Positions 27,451 to 54,071 of a stretch of DNA of 64,000 nucleotides are shown here, one piece after another. The notes under the pieces were generated by a model. That model saw only the letters and a list, made by a program, of their open reading frames with translations, made no database searches and was not told the origin of the DNA. The translations under genes were made by a program, and so were the position numbers. The stretch lies in the NCBI GenBank assembly GCA_020631905.1, contig JACKGQ010000001.1, positions 485,854 to 549,853 of the forward strand, written 5' to 3'. Position 1 is the first letter of the stretch, and each line of letters begins with the position of its first letter. The DNA is from Candidatus Nomurabacteria bacterium (lineage in GTDB: Bacteria > Patescibacteriota > Saccharimonadia > Saccharimonadales > VXPC01).

Positions 27451-27867
27451 ATGATTGCAAGATATTCTGCAGCTGAGATGTTTGGAGCTCCTATAGATAA
27501 CGTTGCGAACGTTAATCTCGAAGATGGTTCACTGATAAGGTTAATGGAGTCTTATGATATCCAGCCGCGCGAGATACCTACTGATCCAACAGACATAACA
27601 CCTTATTACTGGAAGCGTCCCGCATTCCGTTACTTTCTCGCCCTTGCGCATCCAGAGGGTCCGGCCACTGTAGATATGTTGCCTGTGGATGAGGACAGTG
27701 AGAATTATTTACTTCTTGGAGCAGAAGGCTTGGGAGCTGCTGTACAAGCTAGAGTTCGACATATTGAAGTGCCAACTGATCAGCAAGTAGTCGCTATTAT
27801 TGGGCCTGGACCGAGATTTCCAGATAAGCTTAGCGTCCATGAACTAATAGTGAGCGACGAATACTAG
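27451..27867 (+). CDS. Hypothetical protein (138 aa), first gene of an orphan pair
   Basis: Its stop lies 2 nt before the next start. Confidence 0.55.
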   Translation: MIARYSAAEMFGAPIDNVANVNLEDGSLIRLMESYDIQPREIPTDPTDITPYYWKRPAFRYFLALAHPEGPATVDMLPVDEDSENYLLLGAEGLGAAVQARVRHIEVPTDQQVVAIIGPGPRFPDKLSVHELIVSDEY

Positions 27868-27869
27868 TC

Positions 27870-30569
27870 ATGCGTTTTTCCCGTCATCAGCAACCAGAAA
27901 TCGGTATTGAACCACTCAGCCAATCAGATAGAGAGTCGTTTCCGGCTGTTATATATGAGCAACAAGCAACTTCGATAAATGACGCTACGTTACTAATTGA
28001 AGCGGTTGGAGTAGCTAGAGCCCTGAATCTGCCTTTCGCTATTGATGTCGATACCAGCGATGAAGGGTTAATCCAAGCTGTGGTTAGAAGCTCAGCTAAA
28101 GATAGGTTTGAGGCTCGTATACACAGTGCATTATTTCACGGTACATCAGCTATGATATGTGAGCATATGCCTGACCCGCAAACTCGTGATGAGATAGGTG
28201 CCACATTAGTACGGAGTATTGCTCAAAGCGCAATCGAGCAGATAGTCCGAGATGAAGATCTAGAAAAAGGTTTCGGGATTTTTTACTCAGGTCTGCGATG
28301 GCATACTGATCAGGAAAAGTTTGTATCAACGCTTTTTAAAAGTGCGGCTGAACTTGATTTTGAACGACTAGACCAGATGGTTACCACTGGTGAACATATA
28401 CTCGCCATTTCATACGGCATCGAGCATGGCGTGTCTTGGGATACTACCAGAGAATGGCGTAAAATGACCGCCGAACAAGTATTGGAGGCGCATCCGGAAT
28501 TTGACTACCGCAAACTTCAAGATCCAGAGTTTAGAGCTACTGATGAAGGAAAAGCTTTAGAAAAAGCTTATAATGACCATGTTGGGGAAGAGTTGGTACG
28601 ACGCTATAGAACCACTAGAGCCAATATCGATAGCGAAGGAAAAGTAATACCAAAGCCAATACTACCATTGGCTCGATTCCCATTAATTGAATCACTGATC
28701 GTAGATGAAATTCGGATGATAAGTCCTAAGACTAAATATAACTTTGGGCCGAGTGATGTATCTGGTTTAATTCTAGACTCGGACAGCTTAAAGGCTCAGC
28801 AGGCACTTGTGGCAGCTGTAACAACGAGGATTGCTCCCGAGCAACGACATGTGATTGACGGTCCTGATGAGCTTCAACAGAAACGAGGCATTATCATCGA
28901 CATTCTGCGCACATATCAAGACGAGACAGACCCAAAAAGAAAAGCGCAATTCAAAGATCAGATTATCAAAGTAATTGAAGCATATACTAGGGACGGAAGA
29001 GTCGCTGCTGACGTACGCGCCGAATACTACACAAGCAGCACCGACCGATACGTTTATGGACAGGATGTCCGTGCCGTAAGAAATATTTTGGGCGATATTT
29101 TGAAAGCTGGTCTTGCCTCACCGCACGCACAAGAAATAGTCGGTCGCTTGATGCAGGTCACAACTGGAGAATTAACTAAAGAGGTTGATCCAATTTCTCT
29201 AGGTTACGAAGAATTTGAAGAAGCGATATTGGAATCGGTATGGTTAGTTGATGAGCAATCTGACCCAGACTTTATAGAAAGTATAGCGGCTAGAATGTTC
29301 GGTCGCGATTTGGCGGCTAAGATTCGTTACGTTATTTGTATGCGAGCTGAGGCAAAAATGAAATCTAGCCAGCCCGAAGTAGTATTAGCACATAAGAAAT
29401 GGGCAAACAACTTTGCTCCTTTTGATAGTCAAGAAGCCAAAGATTTGAAGCAAGCATATCTTAGCGCCGACTCCGAAGGCCAAGCTTTACGCGATAAAGC
29501 CGATGCCGCTATGAATGAAGTTCTGCTTACACTGATAGAGAGACTTGCTTTTGATCCTGATTCTATTAATGCAGAAAATAGAATACGAAGCTTAATACAA
29601 AAGCTTCGTCTGGGCAACTCATCTGATATGGAGCAGCTACCAGATACATACTACATGCTTATGGAGTTTGCCCGAGATCCAAGAGTAACGAGCTCTACTA
29701 GAGCGAGTATTCTGTGGAGATTTGCGGAACATTACAAATACGCAGCTGACGGGTTAGCCGCAAGACAAGTAACCAAGATTATCATTGATGGCTATCATTT
29801 AATGCTAGGTGACCCCAACCTGCCGTTAAGTGTTCCTGATCACGGTGTTAGCGATGGGCTATATGCCATCAATCAACTAGCGTCTCATAACGTTTTCAAG
29901 CAAGCAGATGAGACACAGTTGTTGGAGCTTTCCCGATATCGTTTCGCTCTATTGGATCTTATTCAAAGATTCACCGGCAGACAACTAACTTCTGGAAGAC
30001 TTGAGGATATTGATTTGAGTGCGGAAAAAGCAGCAGAAGCCGAAGACAACCGCACCACTTATCATATTGAATCTGTTGTGCGCAGTTTTCAAAAACTTGA
30101 AAAGCAATACGAAGAATTCCTGTACCTAGAAGAAGTAAGGCGAGTGCCTCACGTCTACTATCCTTGGGTGTTAAGACAGTTAGTCCCGTTCTGGCAGAAG
30201 ATGCAATGGGAAGTTAGTCCAGGCAACAGACCAAGTTATGACATAACAAGATTGCACAAAACAATTGAAGACTTAATATCAAGTAGACTAGTTGTTGAGC
30301 CAGGACATGAGTTCGACACAAGCTTTGACCCGATGGACGATGGGCATATTGATGAGCTGCTTGTCGCTTGCTATGAGCAGATGGTTGTCCCACACGATAT
30401 CAAAAACAAGCAGACAGTCTGGACAGAAGGAATGTCTTTCATGAATTTGGCTACTACTCTGATGCCTGTAAAGTTGCTCGAAAGGCTCAAAGCAAAATAT
30501 GGCGAAAATCACGGCTTAGTTAAACTAGTGATTAACGAACAAAAAAGATTCAGTCAAGATGAAGAGTAG
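27870..30569 (+). CDS. Large hypothetical protein (899 aa), helical, with no TM helix or signal peptide
   Basis: Uninterrupted 2.7-kb ORF with no recognised motif. Confidence 0.65.
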   Translation: MRFSRHQQPEIGIEPLSQSDRESFPAVIYEQQATSINDATLLIEAVGVARALNLPFAIDVDTSDEGLIQAVVRSSAKDRFEARIHSALFHGTSAMICEHMPDPQTRDEIGATLVRSIAQSAIEQIVRDEDLEKGFGIFYSGLRWHTDQEKFVSTLFKSAAELDFERLDQMVTTGEHILAISYGIEHGVSWDTTREWRKMTAEQVLEAHPEFDYRKLQDPEFRATDEGKALEKAYNDHVGEELVRRYRTTRANIDSEGKVIPKPILPLARFPLIESLIVDEIRMISPKTKYNFGPSDVSGLILDSDSLKAQQALVAAVTTRIAPEQRHVIDGPDELQQKRGIIIDILRTYQDETDPKRKAQFKDQIIKVIEAYTRDGRVAADVRAEYYTSSTDRYVYGQDVRAVRNILGDILKAGLASPHAQEIVGRLMQVTTGELTKEVDPISLGYEEFEEAILESVWLVDEQSDPDFIESIAARMFGRDLAAKIRYVICMRAEAKMKSSQPEVVLAHKKWANNFAPFDSQEAKDLKQAYLSADSEGQALRDKADAAMNEVLLTLIERLAFDPDSINAENRIRSLIQKLRLGNSSDMEQLPDTYYMLMEFARDPRVTSSTRASILWRFAEHYKYAADGLAARQVTKIIIDGYHLMLGDPNLPLSVPDHGVSDGLYAINQLASHNVFKQADETQLLELSRYRFALLDLIQRFTGRQLTSGRLEDIDLSAEKAAEAEDNRTTYHIESVVRSFQKLEKQYEEFLYLEEVRRVPHVYYPWVLRQLVPFWQKMQWEVSPGNRPSYDITRLHKTIEDLISSRLVVEPGHEFDTSFDPMDDGHIDELLVACYEQMVVPHDIKNKQTVWTEGMSFMNLATTLMPVKLLERLKAKYGENHGLVKLVINEQKRFSQDEE

Positions 30570-33240: not shown

Positions 33241-33807
33241 CTACAGTAGTTTACGCCAGAAGAACACGCTACTTCCCCAGCGGCTCGGGATACTAGCTAA
33301 ATTGTGTTCGAACACCGGTCCTGGTCCAAAGCGTGAGCGCACCCGACTCTCACCCAAGACAAAACCGAACTGGAGCGTTGCTTCGTGGCCATAAATTGGG
33401 TGTTCGCCGGTGTAAGCGACGATATCACCAGGAACAACTTTTGCAGGATCAACCAAGGTGAAACCCTTAGAGCGCAAGAAGTCGCGGGTATCGTTGTAAA
33501 GGTATTGACTGGCAGGGTAAGCTTGTCTGGGCACACACCAAGGTTCGCCTAAAATCCGCCCGAACACATATTCGCCGCAACGATCGAATAGATTATTGTC
33601 GTCGAGGCTGTGTGGCTCAAATATGGCGTATCCGGGTAACTCTACCAGACCCTCGAAAGCTTGGTCGGCGCGACGCATATCTGACATTAGTCTATGCGCT
33701 AGGGCTTCTTCCTGATGAACTTGGTCGAGCACTGCTTGGGCTGCTTGGCGTTCAGGGCTATCTGGTAACGCAAGTTGCAGGGCATTGTGGTTATCGAAAC
33801 CGATCAC
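33241..33807 (-). CDS. Hypothetical protein (188 aa), co-transcribed with the WhiB-like gene
   Basis: 4-nt overlap with the upstream gene. No motif. Confidence 0.5.
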   Translation of the reverse strand: MIGFDNHNALQLALPDSPERQAAQAVLDQVHQEEALAHRLMSDMRRADQAFEGLVELPGYAIFEPHSLDDNNLFDRCGEYVFGRILGEPWCVPRQAYPASQYLYNDTRDFLRSKGFTLVDPAKVVPGDIVAYTGEHPIYGHEATLQFGFVLGESRVRSRFGPGPVFEHNLASIPSRWGSSVFFWRKLL

Positions 33808-34151
33808 GGTCGATTGCCTACATGGACAGTTTGAGGTGTAAGGTCTTCTGTTCTAGAGGCTCGAATAGCTTTGGCTAGAGCCTTTGCGGTACTTAGATTG
33901 AGTCTAACAGCTTGCCATTGGCCGCGCTCATAGTTGGTTAGGCCTGCAACAATGCCTTCCGCTTGGCCATTAGCCTGGCTACCGACAAAATAGTCGATGC
34001 AATCAGCTAGGTTTGGGCACTTGCCACATACCAATCGGCCAAGACCTTTGGCTTTACCATCGGATCGGGTTGTTTCTAGCATAATCTGACCACTGTTGTG
34101 ACTGCGGCATGTACTCCGACTTCTTGCGAGCGGTGTAATTTGTTCGGACAT
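33804..34151 (-). CDS. WhiB-like (Wbl) Fe-S transcription factor candidate
   Basis: Cys pattern C-x26-C-x2-C-x5-C (STC...LVCGKCPNLADC), followed by GIVAGLTNYER, which parallels G[VI]WGG..ER of Wbl proteins. Confidence 0.5.
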   Translation of the reverse strand: MSEQITPLARSRSTCRSHNSGQIMLETTRSDGKAKGLGRLVCGKCPNLADCIDYFVGSQANGQAEGIVAGLTNYERGQWQAVRLNLSTAKALAKAIRASRTEDLTPQTVHVGNRP

Positions 34152-34194
34152 AAAAGTACAATAAGCTCTAGACGCCTACGAAGCAAGCACAGGC

Positions 34195-34572
34195 TTAATC
34201 GATCTTGATTTTGTCGATTATTTCGACTAACTGTTTGGGGGTAATCTCGGCTTTAATAATGTAACCATCGGCTTGTTGCTCGACTCGCTCGCGGTTGGCG
34301 TCGTCTTGGTCGAGGTTAGTCGTAATAATTATCTTGCTGTGGAGTGCCGGGCTGTGAGCTTTAATCTTATCGAGTACTTCAAAGCCGGTGATACCCGGAA
34401 TCATTAAATCTAACAGAATAATATCGTAGTGATCGGTCAAAGCAGCGTTTAGACCATCGTCGCCACTCATCATAAGAGTCACATCATATCCAGCTCGACG
34501 TAGTGCTCGAGCATACAACTCGCTTATAAAATATTCATCCTCGATACAGAGAATGGTTTTTGATCCAGCCAT
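34195..34572 (-). CDS. Single-domain response regulator (CheY-like receiver)
   Basis: ILCIEDE...DIILLDLMIPGITGFE...IIITTN...GYIIK. Confidence 0.85.
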   Translation of the reverse strand: MAGSKTILCIEDEYFISELYARALRRAGYDVTLMMSGDDGLNAALTDHYDIILLDLMIPGITGFEVLDKIKAHSPALHSKIIITTNLDQDDANRERVEQQADGYIIKAEITPKQLVEIIDKIKID

Positions 34573-36061
34573 GTGCCTCCCTTACAATTTCATTATCCTC
34601 CGAACCTAGCTTATCGGCAACCGAAGTAAATGTCGGTACATTAAACCCGAAGGTACTACCCACCCCTTCTTTACTTTTAGCCCAGATTTCTCCGCCTTGG
34701 GCGTTAACCAAAGATTTGCTGATATACAAGCCCAAGCCTGTGCCAATTGCCCCGGTTTTACTACGATACGATCTATAGAACTTCTTAAACAAGTACTTCA
34801 TTACGTTTTCTGGAATACCTACACCTTGGTCAGTAACGGTAGTCTGGACCCAGTTTTCGTCGAGCACACTCACCTCGATGTTTATCGGTTTGTCGTCGTG
34901 AGTATATTTGATCGCGTTGTCGATTAAGTTGTTCAAGACTTCATACATGCTAACCTTATCGACTGCCACAAGCGGCAAATTATCGGGTAGGCTGTAGTTA
35001 ATTTTGATACCTCTAACTCGTGCGCGCAACTCTAGTTCGGTAACGGTCTTGCGGATAATTTCTGCCCAGTCTTCCTTATGCATTTTGAGGTGGAGTTGGT
35101 TTTCTTCGACTCTGGCAACATTAAGGATATTGTTCACGAAATCTGCAAGTTGTTGTGCTTGGGCGTTCATGTTGGTTAGAAACTCTTGTTGCTCAGGGTT
35201 CAAGACCGCACCTAATTCATCATCGAATACTTCTAAATAACCACGCATGGCTGTAAGCGGAGTTCGAAGTTCGTGGACTGCCATGGCCACAAAACTGACA
35301 TCGTTATACTCTTGCATGTAGCGATCTGTATGATCAATTACAACCAATAGAATTTCATAGCCGTTGGGGTTGTCTTTGCTATAGTGAGCAACCATATCGA
35401 ACTGCCGGTTGCTGTCGTCACTGAGGGTGTGTTTGACGTGGTCCCAACTCTGACTAGCTGTGGCCTTATTGACTTTACAATAGTTAATCCAATCGTCTAA
35501 GGTTTGCTCACTGCCGGAAAAAGATAGATTAAAGATTGTATCAATATGGTTACCGATAACTTGCGTTTGATCAAAGTTAAAATAGGCACCAGCGGCTGCG
35601 TTGGCATAGACTATCTTGTCTTCGGCCGAAATAGCTACCGCCGGAACAGCGAGCTGGGCTAAACTGGGGATTGATCCCGATGCCGGTGTATCGTGATTCT
35701 GTTGACTGCTCGCCATGGCATAGACTTGGTGCGCGAGATCACCTAAAAACTCGAATTCTTTACGCAAGCCATTTGTATCTGGAGGGTTAATCTGACTAGT
35801 CTGACCACTTGCCGAAAGGATTGCTCTTGCTAAGAAATCTAGGCCAAAAATTGCCCGTTTCATTAGCCAGCTGGCGATAAAGATCGCCAAAGCGATTGTT
35901 ACCAATAAAGACAGTTCGAGACTCCATAACTCCGACCAGTTAAAGACTAAGATCATCAAGTAGAAGCATCCAAGCCCGACGATCAAAACCAGACATAAAC
36001 TGATAACTGTCCTTAGCCAGAGTTTTGACTGAATTTTGCGGATGTATTCAATCATTGCCAT
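34535..36061 (-). CDS. Membrane sensor histidine kinase (PAS, HisKA, HATPase)
   Basis: H-box VAMAVHELRTPLTAMRGY; NAIKYT, DQGVGI and GTGLGLYISK boxes; two N-terminal TM helices. Confidence 0.85.
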   Translation of the reverse strand: MAMIEYIRKIQSKLWLRTVISLCLVLIVGLGCFYLMILVFNWSELWSLELSLLVTIALAIFIASWLMKRAIFGLDFLARAILSASGQTSQINPPDTNGLRKEFEFLGDLAHQVYAMASSQQNHDTPASGSIPSLAQLAVPAVAISAEDKIVYANAAAGAYFNFDQTQVIGNHIDTIFNLSFSGSEQTLDDWINYCKVNKATASQSWDHVKHTLSDDSNRQFDMVAHYSKDNPNGYEILLVVIDHTDRYMQEYNDVSFVAMAVHELRTPLTAMRGYLEVFDDELGAVLNPEQQEFLTNMNAQAQQLADFVNNILNVARVEENQLHLKMHKEDWAEIIRKTVTELELRARVRGIKINYSLPDNLPLVAVDKVSMYEVLNNLIDNAIKYTHDDKPINIEVSVLDENWVQTTVTDQGVGIPENVMKYLFKKFYRSYRSKTGAIGTGLGLYISKSLVNAQGGEIWAKSKEGVGSTFGFNVPTFTSVADKLGSEDNEIVREAHGWIKNHSLYRG

Positions 36062-37200
36062 GCCACTTTACTAACGGCAGTTATCCAAGTTTGACCGCGA
36101 TTAAAGACAATCTCTGCCCCGTTACTGTCATTAAATAGGATTTGCTCAGACTCACTAGATTTTGACCAGCGTCCCTCAATAACTTGACCATCTTGGAAAA
36201 CCCAAACCTTACCGCTATCGACAGTAGTGTAATCAGTTCTTGGCCCATCTTTGGCGTTATAATATTGCTTGTCAACCTGCATGGCGATAACTACCTTGGG
36301 GTTTATTTGATCGCCCGTGCGCTCATCACTATGAGGCGTGTTACCGTAAAAGCGTAAGTAGCTGTTAGTTTTTTTGTCGTAAGTGTAGCTCGGGTTATAA
36401 GATGGTGAGGAGATTGTCATATCTATACTGCTAGCAGTTGACGTTTCGACAGGTTCTTCGTCTTTGCGAGGCCAAGGCTCAAAGTCGCTGGTTGCCTTGC
36501 CCTCGAGTTTGTCTAGGCGCGTAAAGTCTGTGTAAACATTGTGCGGAGCTATACGACTAGAGATACGGGAAAACGAGCTGCCATAAACATATTGGTCTAG
36601 ATTACGCCCAGACTGGATATACTTAGATATGGCAGCCTTACCAGCGATATCTCCACCGACGTGCACGTAGAAGGCATCAAATGGGGCTAACCACTCAACA
36701 TAGTATGGCCGAGCACTACGAACTGGCCCAATATAGTCTGGTTGGCCTTCCTGATAAAGTGCCAGCAATCGTGTTATTCCGCCCTCTGCGTCGGCTTCGA
36801 AGACTACACCGGCTTCGAGCAATCCACTCTGGGGTCGAACGCCAACTGAGTTCTCGATCATAATACCGGTAATCGGGCGCTTAGTGTCTGACTCGTTTTC
36901 GACGAGCATGCCGGTAAGTGGCGATTCGTAAAAAATTGGTTCTGGCTCGGGTTCGGCCTTGCTGACAACTTCTTGTTTAGCTTGAACTGGCTCTGGTGAC
37001 TTTTTATGCAAAAACACGTAGTAACCACCCAAGCCAACCGCCAGAATTAAGCCTAATCCACCTGGCAAGAGATACTTTTTTGGGATATTAATAAACGTCG
37101 TTAATAAACGCTTAAATTTTCGAGGTTGCTTTTGGGTGCTCTGCTCAAGACTAAAAGCTTCAAGATCGTCATTGATAGACGTAGGCGGCCGATTATCCAT
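36052..37200 (-). CDS. DUF3048-family membrane-anchored protein
   Basis: SPLTG...RPITGIMIENSVGVRPQSGL...EGGITRLLALY is the typical DUF3048 N-terminal domain pattern (from memory). Confidence 0.65.
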   Translation of the reverse strand: MDNRPPTSINDDLEAFSLEQSTQKQPRKFKRLLTTFINIPKKYLLPGGLGLILAVGLGGYYVFLHKKSPEPVQAKQEVVSKAEPEPEPIFYESPLTGMLVENESDTKRPITGIMIENSVGVRPQSGLLEAGVVFEADAEGGITRLLALYQEGQPDYIGPVRSARPYYVEWLAPFDAFYVHVGGDIAGKAAISKYIQSGRNLDQYVYGSSFSRISSRIAPHNVYTDFTRLDKLEGKATSDFEPWPRKDEEPVETSTASSIDMTISSPSYNPSYTYDKKTNSYLRFYGNTPHSDERTGDQINPKVVIAMQVDKQYYNAKDGPRTDYTTVDSGKVWVFQDGQVIEGRWSKSSESEQILFNDSNGAEIVFNRGQTWITAVSKVAWQ

Positions 37201-37234
37201 TACCAGTATATTTTAAAACGCTTAAGCTTTGGTA

Positions 37235-38656
37235 TCAAGTTTTTAGACGCTCTAGGACTTCGGCTTTGCCAAGAGTGTTGAGAGTTTCAAAAAGCCCTGG
37301 GCTAAATCTACTACCGGTTATCATTAGCCGTATCAGCATAAAATATTTGCCAACCTTAAGGTCGTTTTCTTTTGCATAGCCATAAAGACGATGTTCGAGA
37401 TCAGTTTCCGTGAAATCGGATGCTTGCAGCAAATCGATTGTGGCGACTAGCAGATTGGCTTGCTCTTCGGGCGTAAATTTGGTTTCTTGCTCAATTTCCT
37501 GAACATCGACAGCCATAGCCCTGGCAAAGAAAAAGCGACTGTACTCGGCTAAATCAGCAAATTTCTTTAGTCTTTCGTAGACCAGATCGAGGACTCTTTG
37601 CTTATAGGCCTTGTCTGACTGGACGGCTTCTTTAGGCCACCAGCTTTCAGCCAACTCTAGTCTTTTTGACGGATCCATATTACGTATGTGCATGCCGTTC
37701 ATCCAGTCTAGTCGAACTGGGTCAAATTTGGCGCCAGATTTCTGGATACGGCTAAGCTCGAAAACGCTCACAAGTTGATCGGGGCTAAATATTTCTTGGT
37801 CTGTGCCTGGGTTCCAGCCGAGCAAAGCCAAATAATTCATGACTGCCTCTGGCAGATAGCCTTCAGTGGCGTAGACGGCGGCGTCTTTCGCCCCATCACG
37901 CTTACTGAGTTTCTTTTTACCATCAGGCCCTAGGATTGGTGGCACATGAGCAAATTCTGGTCGTTGCCAACCAAAAGCGTCGTATAAGAATAAGTGCTTT
38001 GGTGTGCTGCTAAGCCACTCATCGGCGCGTATCACATGGGTAATTTCCATGAGGTGATCGTCGACAACATTGGCAAACTGGTATGTCGGGAAACCATCGC
38101 TTTTGATAGCTACAAAGTCGCCTATATCTTTGCCCCGCCAACTTTGCAGGCCTTTTACGTGATCGGTCCAGGTTATCACTGTCTGGTCGGGAATCGCTAT
38201 CCGAATTACTGCTTTGCCTGTCTCACCTTCTAGCGTTGCCATGTTTTTTCGGAAAACAAACGGTTGTTTATTTGCCTGTGCTTGGGCACGCAAACTTTCT
38301 AGCTGTTCTGGGCTTGTCCAGTCGTAGTAGGCTACGCCGCTATCTAGAAGGGCTTGGATGTAGCGTGTATAGTCGTCGTTACGCTCACTTTGGATGCAAG
38401 ACCCAAATTCTGGGCTCGGTTTATCTGGGCCGTAGTCCCAATCCATGCCTAACCAACCCATGCTAGATAAAATCTGCTCAGCTGCCCCTTCGACGATCCG
38501 AGCTTGGTCGGTGTCTTCGAGACGTACAATAAACTCACCATTATTTTTGCGAGCCCATAAATAGCTAAAAAGGGCAGTTCGGAGACTACCAATATGCAGC
38601 ATACCAGTCGGGCTGGGCGCAAACCTTGTTCGAATTCTCTGATTCATTGCTGTCAT
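37235..38656 (-). CDS. gltX: Glutamyl-tRNA synthetase
   Basis: RFAPSPTGMLHIGSLRTALF (HIGH region) and KLSKRDG (KMSKS). Confidence 0.95.
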   Translation of the reverse strand: MTAMNQRIRTRFAPSPTGMLHIGSLRTALFSYLWARKNNGEFIVRLEDTDQARIVEGAAEQILSSMGWLGMDWDYGPDKPSPEFGSCIQSERNDDYTRYIQALLDSGVAYYDWTSPEQLESLRAQAQANKQPFVFRKNMATLEGETGKAVIRIAIPDQTVITWTDHVKGLQSWRGKDIGDFVAIKSDGFPTYQFANVVDDHLMEITHVIRADEWLSSTPKHLFLYDAFGWQRPEFAHVPPILGPDGKKKLSKRDGAKDAAVYATEGYLPEAVMNYLALLGWNPGTDQEIFSPDQLVSVFELSRIQKSGAKFDPVRLDWMNGMHIRNMDPSKRLELAESWWPKEAVQSDKAYKQRVLDLVYERLKKFADLAEYSRFFFARAMAVDVQEIEQETKFTPEEQANLLVATIDLLQASDFTETDLEHRLYGYAKENDLKVGKYFMLIRLMITGSRFSPGLFETLNTLGKAEVLERLKT

Positions 38657-38671
38657 TATACCAAGGAGTAG

Positions 38672-39121
38672 TTAGAAACTGTTCATAATATCTCGAGTCT
38701 CGAGTGCGGTTGCGAGAGTGCAGGCTTGCTGTTCTTGACCTAGGCATGGGATAACTATTCGACAAACACTACCACCTAGTCCGAAATATAGGGCAACAAG
38801 ATCGGTACGATTAGCACTGCGGTCGATGAGACGATCGTAGATATCTGAAGGTACTTGATCGGCGGCGGTCATAGCCACGGGAATAATTTGTTGACCATGA
38901 GTTAGTGCGTCGTGAAAAGTTCCTTCGACACCGAGATGGGGGTGTATGAGTTTGAAATTTATGCGAAAACGCTCATCACCAAGCATATCAGGGATGGTCG
39001 TGTCAGTATTAGTGGCTATTAAGAAGGCGGCCCGAGCAATTTTTGCGACCGGCTCCTGGCTATTTGGTAACTCAAAGTCGATGCCCTCAAAAGTCTTGGC
39101 TGCAATAATTATGTTTTTCAT
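38672..39121 (-). CDS. Hypothetical protein (149 aa)
   Basis: ORF only. Confidence 0.5.
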   Translation of the reverse strand: MKNIIIAAKTFEGIDFELPNSQEPVAKIARAAFLIATNTDTTIPDMLGDERFRINFKLIHPHLGVEGTFHDALTHGQQIIPVAMTAADQVPSDIYDRLIDRSANRTDLVALYFGLGGSVCRIVIPCLGQEQQACTLATALETRDIMNSF

Positions 39122-44185: not shown

Positions 44186-44251
44186 AAAAAACGAGAAAAC
44201 CCCGAGCCCTGCGAGAGGGCGCGGGGCTCTCGATCGCAGAAGCTCGGGGTT
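44186..44251 (-). terminator. GC-rich compound hairpin plus T-run after the GC-rich ORF
   Basis: On the minus strand: AACCCCGAGC...GCTCGGGGTT enclosing GCCCT-GCGAG-AGGGC, then TTTCTCGTTTTTTT. Confidence 0.65.
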
Positions 44252-44670
44252 CAGGTGGTGGCCAACGATTCTGGAAACGTCTTGAGGCCACCGAGCGCAA
44301 TTACGCTGCACGACCGGCGTCGGTAAACACCGGCGGACTCGCTACTTCCGGCCATGATGAAAACCATGAATTCGGGCACGTCATCGATTGCCACTCCCGT
44401 CTGTTCGAGGCAGGACGCGACCAACCCTTCCATCATCGGCAACGTGCTGAGCGCCCAGCGCTGATCACGCAACTCCTTGCCGAAGTCGAACCGAACGCAC
44501 AAGGGTGTGTGTTCGGGGTCCGGCAACTGCCACTCGAGCAGGGCGATACTGACTTGTTCACCCGGCGACACGTGCGTGCTGTTCGCCAACATGCCCGGGA
44601 GCTTCTCGAAAAGCTTTGCGAGCACGCCTTCATCCATCACGGCCGGCGTCATCGAAATGTACACTTCCAT
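44251..44670 (-). CDS. GC-rich hypothetical protein (139 aa, MEVYISMTPAVMDEG...)
   Basis: RBS AAAGAGGA. About 60% GC with GC3-rich codons. An AT-rich, backbone-type promoter (TTGCAA-18-TATAAT) lies upstream. Confidence 0.6.
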   Translation of the reverse strand: MEVYISMTPAVMDEGVLAKLFEKLPGMLANSTHVSPGEQVSIALLEWQLPDPEHTPLCVRFDFGKELRDQRWALSTLPMMEGLVASCLEQTGVAIDDVPEFMVFIMAGSSESAGVYRRRSCSVIALGGLKTFPESLATT

Positions 44671-44838
44671 GTTGTCCTCTTTCGGGTCGCAGGCATTTGC
44701 CCACACCTCCCACCATGAGAGATAACCATATTATACAATAATTGCTACAGTTATTGCAACTTGTTATTTCACTGTTTCGATCTTTAAAAATTGTTTGTGG
44801 TTATAAGTAGATGATTTCGAGGTAACGCATAGGCTGGG

Positions 44839-52126: not shown

Positions 52127-52159
52127 ATAAACGAAAAGACCGCCCAATAAAGGACGGTC
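52127..52159 (-). terminator. Intrinsic terminator ending the GC-rich unit
   Basis: On the minus strand: GACCGTCC-TTTATT-GGGCGGTC followed by TTTTCGTTTAT. One pair is G.U on the minus strand only. Confidence 0.6.
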
Positions 52160-52423
52160 GAATGTTGTTCGTAGGGAGCGAGGCTCAACCGTACGAACTG
52201 CTCTAACTCGAGCAAACGGAGATCTAATTTAGATCAATCAACGTTCGCGAGGAGCGTTGCTAGCAACATTTTCGGGTTTCCCCCGAGGGCGGCTGGCTGG
52301 TCCGCCGGAGCAGACCAGCCAGCCGCAGGCACCACCTCGCAGGAGAGAGGTAGGTGTTAAAACGACGCGTGATTGGCCCCCCAGGCCCACACCAAACATC
52401 GTTAGTTGTGCCGCCCGACACAC

Positions 52424-52640
52424 TCAATTGGCTACCGCTATGGGTCGCCCGATACGGGTGGCAATTTGCCGGCACTTCTTGCGAAGTCCGGAGAGTTTGG
52501 GGAGCAAGTCGCCGGGCGGCATACTCCCCTCTAGAAAAATCTCTTGAGGGCTGTCGGTAAGTTTGTCCAGGCCGGCGATTATGCCAACCAACTGCGAATG
52601 GCGCAGGGTTCCTCCGATGCATTCTCCGTGAGCTTTTTTC
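52424..52640 (-). pseudogene. Protein-like reading frame without a start codon (…GGTLRHSQLVGIIAGLDKLTDSPQEIFLEGSMPPGDLLPKLSGLRKKCRQIATRIGRPIAVAN*), apparently frame-shifted at an A6 run
   Basis: The upstream frame reads TERRKRYDDLLEK and switches frame at GAAAAAAGC (about 52633-52640). There is no ATG, GTG or TTG in either frame upstream. Confidence 0.3.
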
Positions 52641-53163
52641 CAGAAGGTCGTCGTAGCGCTTCCGCCGTTCAGTCTGCAGGACGTCTGCTAGGTTCCGAGC
52701 TGGGCTCGAATCCTAGGTCTTAGACCCCGCAACCAGTGAACCTTGGTTTGCCTATTAGTCGACGACCCAGATCTGTCGGTTCTCGTGAAAGAACCGACGC
52801 GGGTCATTTCTCCCCGTGAATCGATCGGCGCGACCCAGTGGCATTGGGTGCGGTTGACAGCCGCATGCCACTGGGTCGACTTCAGATGTACGCCATCTGT
52901 CTCCATGCCGAGTTGCCTCGGTACAACTCTTGCGAGCTGCAGCGTCAGAGCCGTACGCCCTGTGCTTACGTTTTGGGTGTCAATCCAACTATAAGCGATT
53001 CGACTGGTTCGGAGTGCGCGTTCCCTTGGCTTAACCTAGCCAGTCGAATTGTCACGTCGGTGCCGCAGGATCGTATGTGCTGCGGGCCGTGCGTCGACGT
53101 ATCGGTACCAAGTTGCCTTGGCTACCGATCGTGGCCAACATTGCTGCTGGCCTTCTCGAGTTG

Positions 53164-53391
53164 CTACGTGTTGCCACGCAACCTCTCTATTGTGTGGAGC
53201 TTAGCCCCAGCGACCTTGCCCCCGAGCAGCCAACACGGCGTACTCGAGGGTTTGGGGAAGGTTCCCCGCGTCCGGCAGGATGCCGGTGAGCGGTTTGAGA
53301 CGGGAATGTTTTGGTACCTTCCTTGCAGGCGGAGCTGGCGAGGGTCCAACGCCCTCCGCTCCTTGGTGATGCGGGTGAACGCATCGTTCAC
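53164..53391 (-). pseudogene. Small ORF with a perfect RBS whose GC3 signal changes frame midway (frameshifted gene?)
   Basis: AAGGAGGTGAACG-ATG. It starts MNDAFTRITKERRALDPRQLRL in a GC3-rich frame. After a low-GC patch (ggaaggtaccaaaaca) the protein-like, GC3-rich frame is the next one (KPLTGILPDAGNLPQTLEYAVLAARGQGRWG*, stop at 53201-53203). Confidence 0.35.
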
Positions 53392-53416
53392 CTCCTTGCC
53401 TTTCGATCGTCGTCGG

Positions 53417-53566
53417 CTAGGAGGTGATGGTGGTGCCGCCGGCGGCGGCGTTCATCAGGGCCGGCTCGGTGTGCGTGGTGTCCGCACCACCGATGTCGAC
53501 GTCGGTGCGACATGCGACGATGTTCTGGCCCTGGAGGGCGGCCGTCTGGCCGCTCTTGGTTCGCAT
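53417..53566 (-). CDS. 49-aa GC-rich mini-ORF (MRTKSGQTAALQGQNIVACRTDVDIGGADTTHTEPALMNAAAGGTTITS)
   Basis: RBS GGAGAGAGGA lies about 8 nt upstream. 45 of 49 codons end in G or C, a strong coding signal of high-GC type. Confidence 0.45.
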   Translation of the reverse strand: MRTKSGQTAALQGQNIVACRTDVDIGGADTTHTEPALMNAAAGGTTITS

Positions 53567-54071
53567 CTGGTGTTTCCTCTCTCCCCCGGAGGGGGTTGGC
53601 GGAAGCCGGTGCTTCACCCATTGGGATGACCCGCAGGGTTCGACTTGGACTTACCTTTGCAGGTGTCCCCAAGTCTACCTCGACGTTTCTTACCTGAAGT
53701 GTACGCGTCGGGGTTGGGTTGCCTTTACGGCGGATACTACACACCAAGATGTGTACTATTCGCCGCAAAGACTTATTAGCCAAACGGCTAAAGATGTTGC
53801 TAGCTTGTTAAACAACATAAGTGTGGTCTGCTTAGTCTGCGTGATTAAATTTGAATTGTCTCGCAAGTTAAGTGATGTACTTCACACTTAAGTGGGTTAG
53901 AATTTACACAATCTTCAAATATTTGTCAACATTATTTTCATAAAATCAACATATGGTGTCATAAAACTGCTTGAAACGCTAGATGTGTTGATTTTTACAA
54001 TCTTTTATTGACGCAAGAACTTTCAACAAAATTTAGCTTAGTTTAAACTGTCTCCAATTTGGAGGGTAGCA

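Follow-up and report, generated by a model that had tools for sequence, protein, structure and literature searches.

WhiB-like (Wbl) proteins are ubiquitous in Actinobacteria and their phages. A 2026 paper describes the family as exclusive to Actinobacteria and actinobacteriophages and names four features that define it, namely four cysteines, a glycine-rich G[V/I]WGG turn, an aromatic patch, and docking on region 4 of sigma-A (PMC13013590). In WhiB1 the patch positions AP1-4 are W3, F17, F18, and W60, and they dock on His516-Pro517 of sigma-A region 4. Of 995 Wbls, 98.7% have an aromatic residue at two or more of these positions, including one of AP2-3 (PMC13013590). The subject of this study is a gene pair within a 64-kb stretch of contig JACKGQ010000001.1 (this whole analysed stretch is called the window in the following), which belongs to the chromosome of a Candidatus (Ca.) Saccharibacteria metagenome-assembled genome (MAG). 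The first gene of the pair encodes a 115-aa protein that appears to be a remote relative of the Wbls, the second one an orphan protein of 188 aa. The NCBI pipeline already lists the 115-aa protein as “WhiB family transcriptional regulator” and its 188-aa neighbor as hypothetical protein, and therefore the bare annotation is not new.

Similarity of the 115-aa protein to WhiB

The 115-aa protein (P0001; 33804..34151, minus strand, ATG start; NCBI MCA9349082.1 / MCB9821416.1) contains Cys15, Cys42, Cys45, and Cys51 in the arrangement C-x26-C-x2-C-x5-C, with VCGKCPNLADC forming residues 41-51. This pattern had been pointed out in an earlier sequence-only reading of the same DNA and was confirmed by reading the open reading frame (ORF). 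The four cysteines are the putative cluster ligands, and a spacing of x26 is usual among Wbls, with Mycobacterium tuberculosis WhiB1 showing C9-x27-C37-x2-C40-x5-C46 (numbering in agreement with the PDB alignment). Residues 66-76 read GIVAGLTNYER and include a degenerate turn, G66-I-V-A-G70. The protein is basic (pI 9.55) and poor in aromatic residues (3.5%). Its residues 77-115 comprise six K+R vs. two D+E, with neither an AT-hook nor a WhiB1-like KRR cluster, and its C-terminus carries the motif D[LI]TPQT[VL]H, which is specific to the small family described below.

A Pfam search, proposed as a check in the earlier reading, yielded a match to Whib (PF02467) with 25.3 bits at a gathering cut-off of 23.6 (E 2.2e-5), spanning profile positions 3-63 of 65 and including all four cysteines. 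Four separate WhiB PHROGs (472, 14459, 10071, and 9926, of which 472 was the best) matched as well, at E 9.8e-6 to 7.5e-3. NCBIfam contained no match for the protein, and no rival Pfam, NCBIfam or PHROG family competes. In a sequence search of the entire PDB the best solved relative was M. tuberculosis WhiB1 (E 0.12); the alignment starts one residue before the second cysteine (C2), continues past the fourth (C4) and the turn as far as E-R, and includes a 3-residue insertion. Searches of 50,697 phage records by tblastn gave 48 weak matches (E 0.3-10), all from Mycobacterium, Gordonia or Streptomyces phages except for one unannotated record, and 14 of the 15 matches listed fell on WhiB-annotated genes. 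Similarly, 10 of 14 weak matches to the plasmids of PLSDB were from Streptomyces or Nocardia, mostly on WhiB genes.

An exhaustive phmmer search of 1.84 billion representatives returned four hits, of which one was a true relative (P0004, 111 aa, E 3.3e-10, 37% identity). The earlier reading had named two grounds for refutation, a missing Whib match and cysteines that are not conserved among homologues. Neither applies, since in this sole detectable homologue all four cysteines are kept (Cys16/43/46/52) with identical spacing. Also kept are H18, the turn segment [GA]-x-V-A-G-L, W79-Q80, and the C-terminal D[LI]TPQT[VL]H. Two other hits, P0003 (1419 aa, 13 matched stretches, E 5.8e-20) and P0005 (657 aa, nine matched stretches, E 4.5e-4), were rejected as relatives, as they are tandem-repeat translations whose many weak stretches sum up, an artefact of the exhaustive search. 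A word-index search with the single protein found only the protein itself, and searching with the two-member profile yielded no further member.

A hidden Markov model (HMM) built from seven canonical Wbls scored the Wbl-like protein at 34.4 bits, a value reached by none of 2000 shuffles with fixed cysteines (mean 2.4, maximum 19.2), with the restriction that this HMM is biased, six of its seven sequences having been picked as tblastn matches of the Wbl-like protein itself. When the two-member family was compared by hhalign to the same seven Wbls, the probability was 90% (E 1.4e-6, 63 columns).

Several observations weigh against a relationship with the Wbls. The Pfam Whib score exceeds the cut-off by 1.7 bits only, P0004 on its own fails to match Pfam Whib even at E<=10, and the score of P0004 against the Wbl HMM was matched by 164 of 2000 cysteine-preserving shuffles. 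With an independently chosen Wbl set, the hhalign probability was 49% (E 1.8e-4, 40 columns), and these 40 unbiased columns are limited to C2-C4, the turn, and the beginning of the last helix. The independent set consisted of Streptomyces venezuelae WhiB (a 73-residue stretch copied from the PDB alignment printout), the Saccharibacteria Wbl domain described below, WhiB of phage Bernal13, and WhiB1; for the WhiB1 sequence used in both sets, the stretch that could be compared agrees with the PDB alignment. Furthermore, the two-sequence family profile matched no WhiB chain among the PDB sequences, the AlphaFold2 model of the Wbl-like protein obtained from the two-sequence alignment was unusable (predicted local distance difference test, pLDDT, 47) and not recognisably Wbl-like, and a Foldseek comparison of this model with the PDB gave noise only (E of at least 2.9). 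In the turn, both family members have Val instead of Trp (V68 in the window protein), and Ala takes the place of the fourth Gly in the window protein. Still, no actual competitor for the assignment emerged from the family searches, and taking all these observations together, it is likely that the Wbl-like protein is a remote homologue of the Wbl superfamily.

Regarding the turn, the earlier reading had placed GIVAGLTNYER at the position of the Wbl G[VI]WGG motif. The alignment position was correct, but the motif itself is kept only in part, as GIVAG with Trp changed to Val. The segment reads G-I-V-A-G in the window protein vs. A-(gap)-V-A-G in P0004, with its position and the flanking Gly kept. 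By hhalign, AP2/AP3 correspond to M24/L25 (Y25/L26 in P0004) and AP1 is unaligned (region of A9), the N-terminal alignment being uncertain; according to this alignment, the window protein has no aromatic residue at any of the four patch positions, and P0004 has a single one. The window protein has no W, F or Y before residue 54. Since two of the defining features, the turn and the aromatic patch, are not present in their usual form, the protein was filed as Wbl-derived or Wbl-like and not as a canonical member. A gene for the primary sigma factor, rpoD, is absent from the 64-kb window.

The gene pair, its neighborhood and its possible origin

The Wbl-like gene terminates in a TGA that overlaps the GTG start of the 188-aa partner gene (P0002; 33241..33807, minus strand), an orphan with no family assigned. 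The resulting 4-nt overlap, GTGA (33804..33807, minus strand), is the geometry of a predicted translational coupling. The earlier reading had regarded the overlapping genes as a two-gene unit, and this geometry was not only confirmed but is also kept at the P0004 locus, where the 4-nt overlap is ATGA instead of GTGA. The partner gene ends 2 nt from the stop of a convergent PspC gene. Upstream of the pair and on the same strand are a receiver-only response regulator (RR; 34195-34572, minus strand), a PAS-histidine kinase (HK; 34535-36061, minus strand), and a DUF3048 gene (36052-37200, minus strand). The RR is located directly upstream of the Wbl-like gene, its stop being separated from the Wbl-like start by a gap of 43 nt (34152..34194, minus strand).

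The gene content of the window is typical of Saccharibacteria (sortase, PEGA, DUF3048, gltX, PspC/PadR), and its GC content is ~46%. The Wbl-like gene is found on contigs of up to 770 kb and also in GCA_020428525.1. Mis-binning is excluded, since several independent assemblies have the gene within a Saccharibacteria backbone. The view that the window does not look actinobacterial and that the organism may be Saccharibacteria-like, already raised in the sequence-only reading, is thus in line with the NCBI accessions, which are assigned to Ca. Saccharibacteria.

P0004 is encoded in three Logan assemblies (locus L005), in which the gene order is sortase, PEGA, DUF4367, gltX, DUF3048, HK, RR, Wbl-like gene, and the gene of a 189-aa protein. 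Identities between the window and L005 are 85% for the RR, 74% for gltX, 66% for the sortase, 65% for the HK, 53% for DUF3048, 46% for DUF4367, 43% for the partner, and 37% for both the Wbl-like protein and PEGA, meaning that the pair evolves as fast as a surface protein. All coding indels that distinguish the two pairs are multiples of 3, and the ORFs are intact and of similar length; this implies that the pair is maintained by selection. In view of the fast divergence, there could be more distant homologues that escape detection. The Wbl-like pair is real, narrowly distributed, and fast-evolving, and the core of the earlier reading was in essence correct. The genes following the pair are PspC and PadR in the window vs. 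three orphans in L005, and the pair is not flanked by any phage, integrase or mobile-element gene.

A scan with the kinase alignment against one genome per GTDB species revealed one further Saccharibacteria locus (L008, on CAYUOI010000007.1 of an uncultured Ca. Saccharibacteria MAG; HK 47%, RR 58%). There, the pair is absent, and genes for an S24 LexA/UmuD-like protein, an SRAP protein, and a Y-family polymerase come after the RR. The cluster of DUF3048, HK, and RR with overlapping genes is present in all three loci (window 34195-37200, minus strand; L005:6954-9962; L008:4691-7893), and the site directly downstream of the RR has the appearance of a local accessory-gene hotspot. As the pair occupies such a variable spot, it is to be seen as a lineage-specific accessory unit and not as a part of the conserved two-component cluster. 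Likewise, since the cluster exists without the pair in L008, synteny alone gives no functional link.

The 43-nt gap upstream of the Wbl-like gene contains no Shine-Dalgarno (SD) motif. It contains a -10-like box, TATTGT, at 34163..34158 (-12..-7 relative to the start) and a weak TTGCTT 17 nt further upstream (34186..34181). The corresponding 38 nt of L005 contain TATAGT and TACAGT, the latter at -12..-7 of the second ATG. Across the window, an SD-like motif precedes only 22% of the 58 long ORFs, and TANNNT peaks at -12 (10 of 58 ORFs, as compared with ~2-3 per neighboring position), both figures being rough owing to the mechanical assignment of ORF starts. Such a pattern is characteristic of leaderless mRNAs, and it suggests that transcripts of this type may be made from many genes of the genome. 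Because the -10-like box of the Wbl-like gene shows the same geometry as the window-wide peak, a promoter of its own and a leaderless mRNA are possible, and the pair may accordingly have a weak promoter. A simple promoter scan called no site in the 43-nt gap; it called a 10/12 site before DUF3048 (37238..37210). No terminator was found between the RR and the Wbl-like gene, and alternatively there may be read-through into the pair from the upstream genes.

The 188-aa partner is acidic (pI 5.4) and rich in aromatic residues (12% W/F/Y). Its homologue at L005 has 189 aa and 43% identity, with a conserved N-terminus M[IN]GF, conserved Cys77, Cys91, His136, and His168, and the conserved blocks FDRCGEYVFG, YNDTR, GPVFEH, and FFWRK. 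These Cys and His residues, together with the blocks, suggest an enzyme or a metal site. The partner has no match in Pfam, NCBIfam, PHROG or PADLOC, the two-sequence profile matched no PDB sequence, and a single-sequence AlphaFold2 model was unusable (pLDDT 42). A tblastn search of the phages yielded no match, and two matches to plasmids (E 5-9) were discarded, as they lie antisense to annotated genes. Because of the pattern FDRCGEY...GD[IV]V.Y...H, a papain-like/NlpC/P60/CHAP hydrolase was also considered for the partner, but failed every test; counting against it, the histidine H140 of ‘YGH’ is Asn in the homologue. Neither a scan of JGI metagenomes with the partner alignment nor one with the back-translated FDRCGEYVFG pattern returned anything, and viral contigs of IMG/VR scanned with both alignments contained no relative. 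For the pair and its homologues, PADLOC gave no hit at E<=10 except for a noise match of the L005 partner (0.054, cyclase model). Direct reading of the sequences of the pair proteins showed no signal peptide or hydrophobic segment.

With respect to origin, the earlier reading had considered the Wbl-like gene to be derived from a host or a phage. This part of the reading did not gain direct support, as there is no close donor, no match in viral contigs, and no signal in GC content. No actinobacterial or phage sequence is closer to the Wbl-like protein than E ~0.3 (tblastn against phages and plasmids), and with GC/GC content at third codon positions (GC3) of 0.50/0.39 and 0.52/0.51 the pair is native-like, lying within ~1.2 standard deviations of the window genes (GC 0.47±0.04, GC3 0.46±0.06). 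With no identifiable donor lineage and no GC signal, the argument for a horizontal origin is one of distribution only, Wbls being found throughout Actinobacteria and their phages but patchily here. A host or phage origin nevertheless appears plausible.

The distribution argument gains weight from L008. The gltX-DUF3048 interval, which is a 34-nt gap in the window, holds a 3.4-kb two-gene insert in L008. It encodes a canonical Wbl protein of 313 aa (L008:1239-2180, minus strand) and a 798-aa protein with repeated OmpR-type winged helix-turn-helix (wHTH) units (L008:2201-4597, minus strand). The C-terminal Wbl domain scores 85.5 bits against Pfam Whib and has W, FF, GIWGG, and the four cysteines all present. 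It is ~65% identical to S. venezuelae WhiB (8DY7; E 4.3e-25) and 60-62% identical to mycobacteriophage WhiBs, and its GC content is 0.57 vs. 0.48 for the locus. Its similarity to the window protein (BLASTP E 0.88) does not exceed that of actinobacterial Wbls. An exact entry for the L008 protein was not found in the protein collection with any of six alternative starts tried. The presence of this domain means that Wbl domains occur in, and do enter, Saccharibacteria genomes, and L008 provides a clearer example of a Wbl outside Actinobacteria than the window gene does.

Some further features of the window are recorded here in their own right. At 52130-53895 (minus strand) lies an unannotated, apparently non-coding stretch of ~1.75 kb that is GC-rich (0.57-0.68 vs. 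a background of 0.46), and minimum free energy z-scores of its 200-nt windows are -4 to -8 vs. ~0 in the flanks. It contains no credible ORF and has no Pfam hit and no Rfam hit even at E<=1, there is no copy elsewhere in the window or the loci, and blastn yielded no match in phages or plasmids. The stretch is bracketed on the minus strand by a promoter-like TTGACA-17-TAAATT (53929..53901) and an intrinsic terminator (52159..52138, then TTTTCGTTT), and a 14-nt inverted repeat (52259-52272 / 53791-53804; chance expectation ~0.4) could close it. It is a candidate for a large structured non-coding RNA, or for foreign DNA. A strong compositional outlier is a 151-aa ORF at 44251-44706 (minus strand) with a GC of 0.59 and a GC3 of 0.76 (vs. 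0.47 and 0.46) and no Pfam hit. Further ORFs without a Pfam family encode 138 aa and 899 aa in 27451-30569 (plus strand) and 149 aa at 38672-39121 (minus strand), the last of which is absent from the syntenic L005 locus.

Possible mechanism and rival explanations

The explanation that accounts best for the data as a whole, and to which we would give an even chance, is that of a divergent Wbl offshoot with a coupled partner, altered docking, and an old horizontal transfer. The 115-aa gene would be a remote, fast-evolving offshoot of the [4Fe-4S] Wbls that has become fixed in one narrow Saccharibacteria lineage. The pair would probably form a leaderless bicistron driven by a weak promoter of its own, in which the Wbl-like protein would be translationally coupled to the 188-aa protein. 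As in Wbls, the four cysteines may hold an oxygen- or NO-labile Fe-S cluster, whose state may switch a protein-protein interaction modulating gene expression. The docking partner is probably other than that in Actinobacteria, or bound differently, because the turn Trp and the aromatic patch, used by every characterised Wbl for sigma region 4, are lost. The best candidate for this role would be the co-translated 188-aa protein, as coupling, complementary charge, and aromatic content suggest that it might replace sigma region 4 as docking surface. Ultimately, the gene probably goes back to a horizontal transfer from an actinobacterial host or an actinophage, which would be old enough for the composition to have equilibrated and for the donor to be no longer recognisable.

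Some of the observations would also fit an ordinary Wbl transcription factor with a [4Fe-4S] cluster that docks on Saccharibacteria sigma region 4, with M24, L25, and V68 substituting for the patch and the 188-aa protein being merely co-expressed. The Whib HMM score above cut-off, the aligned four cysteines and turn position, and the basic C-terminal half, as in Wbls, all speak for it. So does the His-Pro pair of sigma region 4.2 (RHPSRS), which is widely conserved among primary sigma factors, including those from outside Actinobacteria. In addition, non-aromatic patch residues can still matter, for example L45 of WhiB4 (PMC13013590). However, with no patch aromatic in the window protein and just one in P0004, as opposed to at least two in 98.7% of 995 Wbls (PMC13013590), and with the turn Trp (AP4) being Val in both members, such a factor appears unlikely. 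We regard it as rather unlikely that the protein is unrelated to the Wbls and instead represents a small Cys4 metal-binding protein (Fe-S or zinc) with a convergent spacing. The marginal Pfam score, the homologue without a Pfam hit, the family profile that finds no WhiB in the PDB sequences, the unbiased hhalign probability of 49%, and the AlphaFold2 model that is not recognisably Wbl-like would all agree with convergence, and C-x2-C-x5-C is also found in unrelated [4Fe-4S] modules, such as those of EndoIII/MutY, AddB, and Cas4. Yet the likeness extends beyond the cysteines to the context A/G-[KR]-x-V-C-x-[KR]-C-P, to the position of the G-x-x-G-[IV]-x-x-G turn, and to the E-R after it. Moreover, cysteine-preserving shuffles never approach the real score, the weak matches in two nucleotide collections lie overwhelmingly on WhiB genes and not on random ORFs, and no other Pfam, NCBIfam or PHROG family competes.

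An accessory conflict module, be it a toxin-antitoxin or anti-phage pair, made up of a small component that binds DNA or protein and a 188-aa effector, or an epibiont factor directed against the sigma-A of the host, as with actinophage WhiBs, would be in accordance with the location in a variable spot, which is occupied differently in each of the three syntenic loci, with the low identities of the Wbl-like protein (37%) and the partner (43%) vs. 74-85% for gltX and RR, with the overlapping two-gene architecture, and with the extremely narrow distribution. We consider it very unlikely, given that PADLOC gave no hit, that the neighbors include no phage, integrase or mobile-element genes, that signal peptides and hydrophobic segments are absent, and that the loss of the aromatic patch speaks against canonical binding to sigma-A region 4 of either the host or the cell itself. 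The loss of family motifs, the marginal HMM score, and the fast divergence might likewise point to a decaying remnant of a transferred Wbl gene without present function, but it is hardly credible that a remnant would have kept intact ORFs, four cysteines, in-frame indels only, the overlap, and the C-terminal motif despite 63% amino-acid divergence. A further-reaching variant of the preferred explanation of a divergent offshoot, namely repeated capture of host-type Wbls, one of which was remodelled into a sigma-independent sensor that forms an obligate heterodimer and whose cluster is shielded by the aromatics of the partner, is quite unlikely. More speculatively, the pair might be used against the sigma-A of the actinobacterial host.

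Comparison with known Wbl systems

Saccharibacteria are obligate epibionts, and the cultured members live on Actinobacteria. Wbl-type genes in Saccharibacteria would thus reflect gene flow, either from host to epibiont or mediated by phages. No paper linking WhiB/Wbl to Saccharibacteria, Patescibacteria, CPR (candidate phyla radiation) or TM7 was found in the library searched, besides those on the host Schaalia or in unrelated contexts, and a search for papers citing the sample or assembly accessions likewise gave none. For the Wbl-like gene, the stated restriction to Actinobacteria and actinophages fails, as the gene is located on a Saccharibacteria contig and has a syntenic Saccharibacteria homologue locus. 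The gene whiB has been used as a marker for assigning phages to Actinobacteria (2023 preprint, bioRxiv 10.1101/2023.05.30.542503), and Wbl genes in Saccharibacteria call for caution in such whiB-based host assignments. The Wbl-like protein would also represent a natural experiment, a Wbl scaffold without the aromatic sigma-docking patch. If the reading as sensor heterodimer or the host-directed one were true, this would be the first case of a Wbl derivative that docks on another partner, as well as the first to be studied outside Actinobacteria.

Compared to WhiB1 (PDB 5OAY, 6ONO), the window protein is likewise a small basic protein with C-x26/27-C-x2-C-x5-C in the context [KR]-x-V-C-x-[KR]-C-P, and in both a Gly-flanked turn followed by E-R comes ~15 residues after the fourth cysteine. 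It differs in the turn, which is GVWGG in WhiB1 and GIVAG here, and in the patch, where W3/F17/F18/W60 of WhiB1 are opposed by an unaligned position, M24, L25, and V68. Furthermore, it has a longer C-terminus with TPQT[VL]H, which is not seen in Wbls, and a coupled partner gene. The phage WhiBs that were the top tblastn matches (Mycobacterium phage prophi58-1 gp38 and Yuna gp57) are 31-34% identical over 57-58% of the query and have the cysteine motif in common with it. However, they keep W, FF/FY, and G[IV]WGG, and the individual matches are not significant (E of at least 0.3). The Wbl of L008 shares with the window gene the Saccharibacteria backbone and the same neighborhood of gltX...DUF3048-HK-RR, but it is canonical, carries an N-terminal extension of ~220 aa, has the 798-aa multi-wHTH protein as its companion, and resides at another insertion point.

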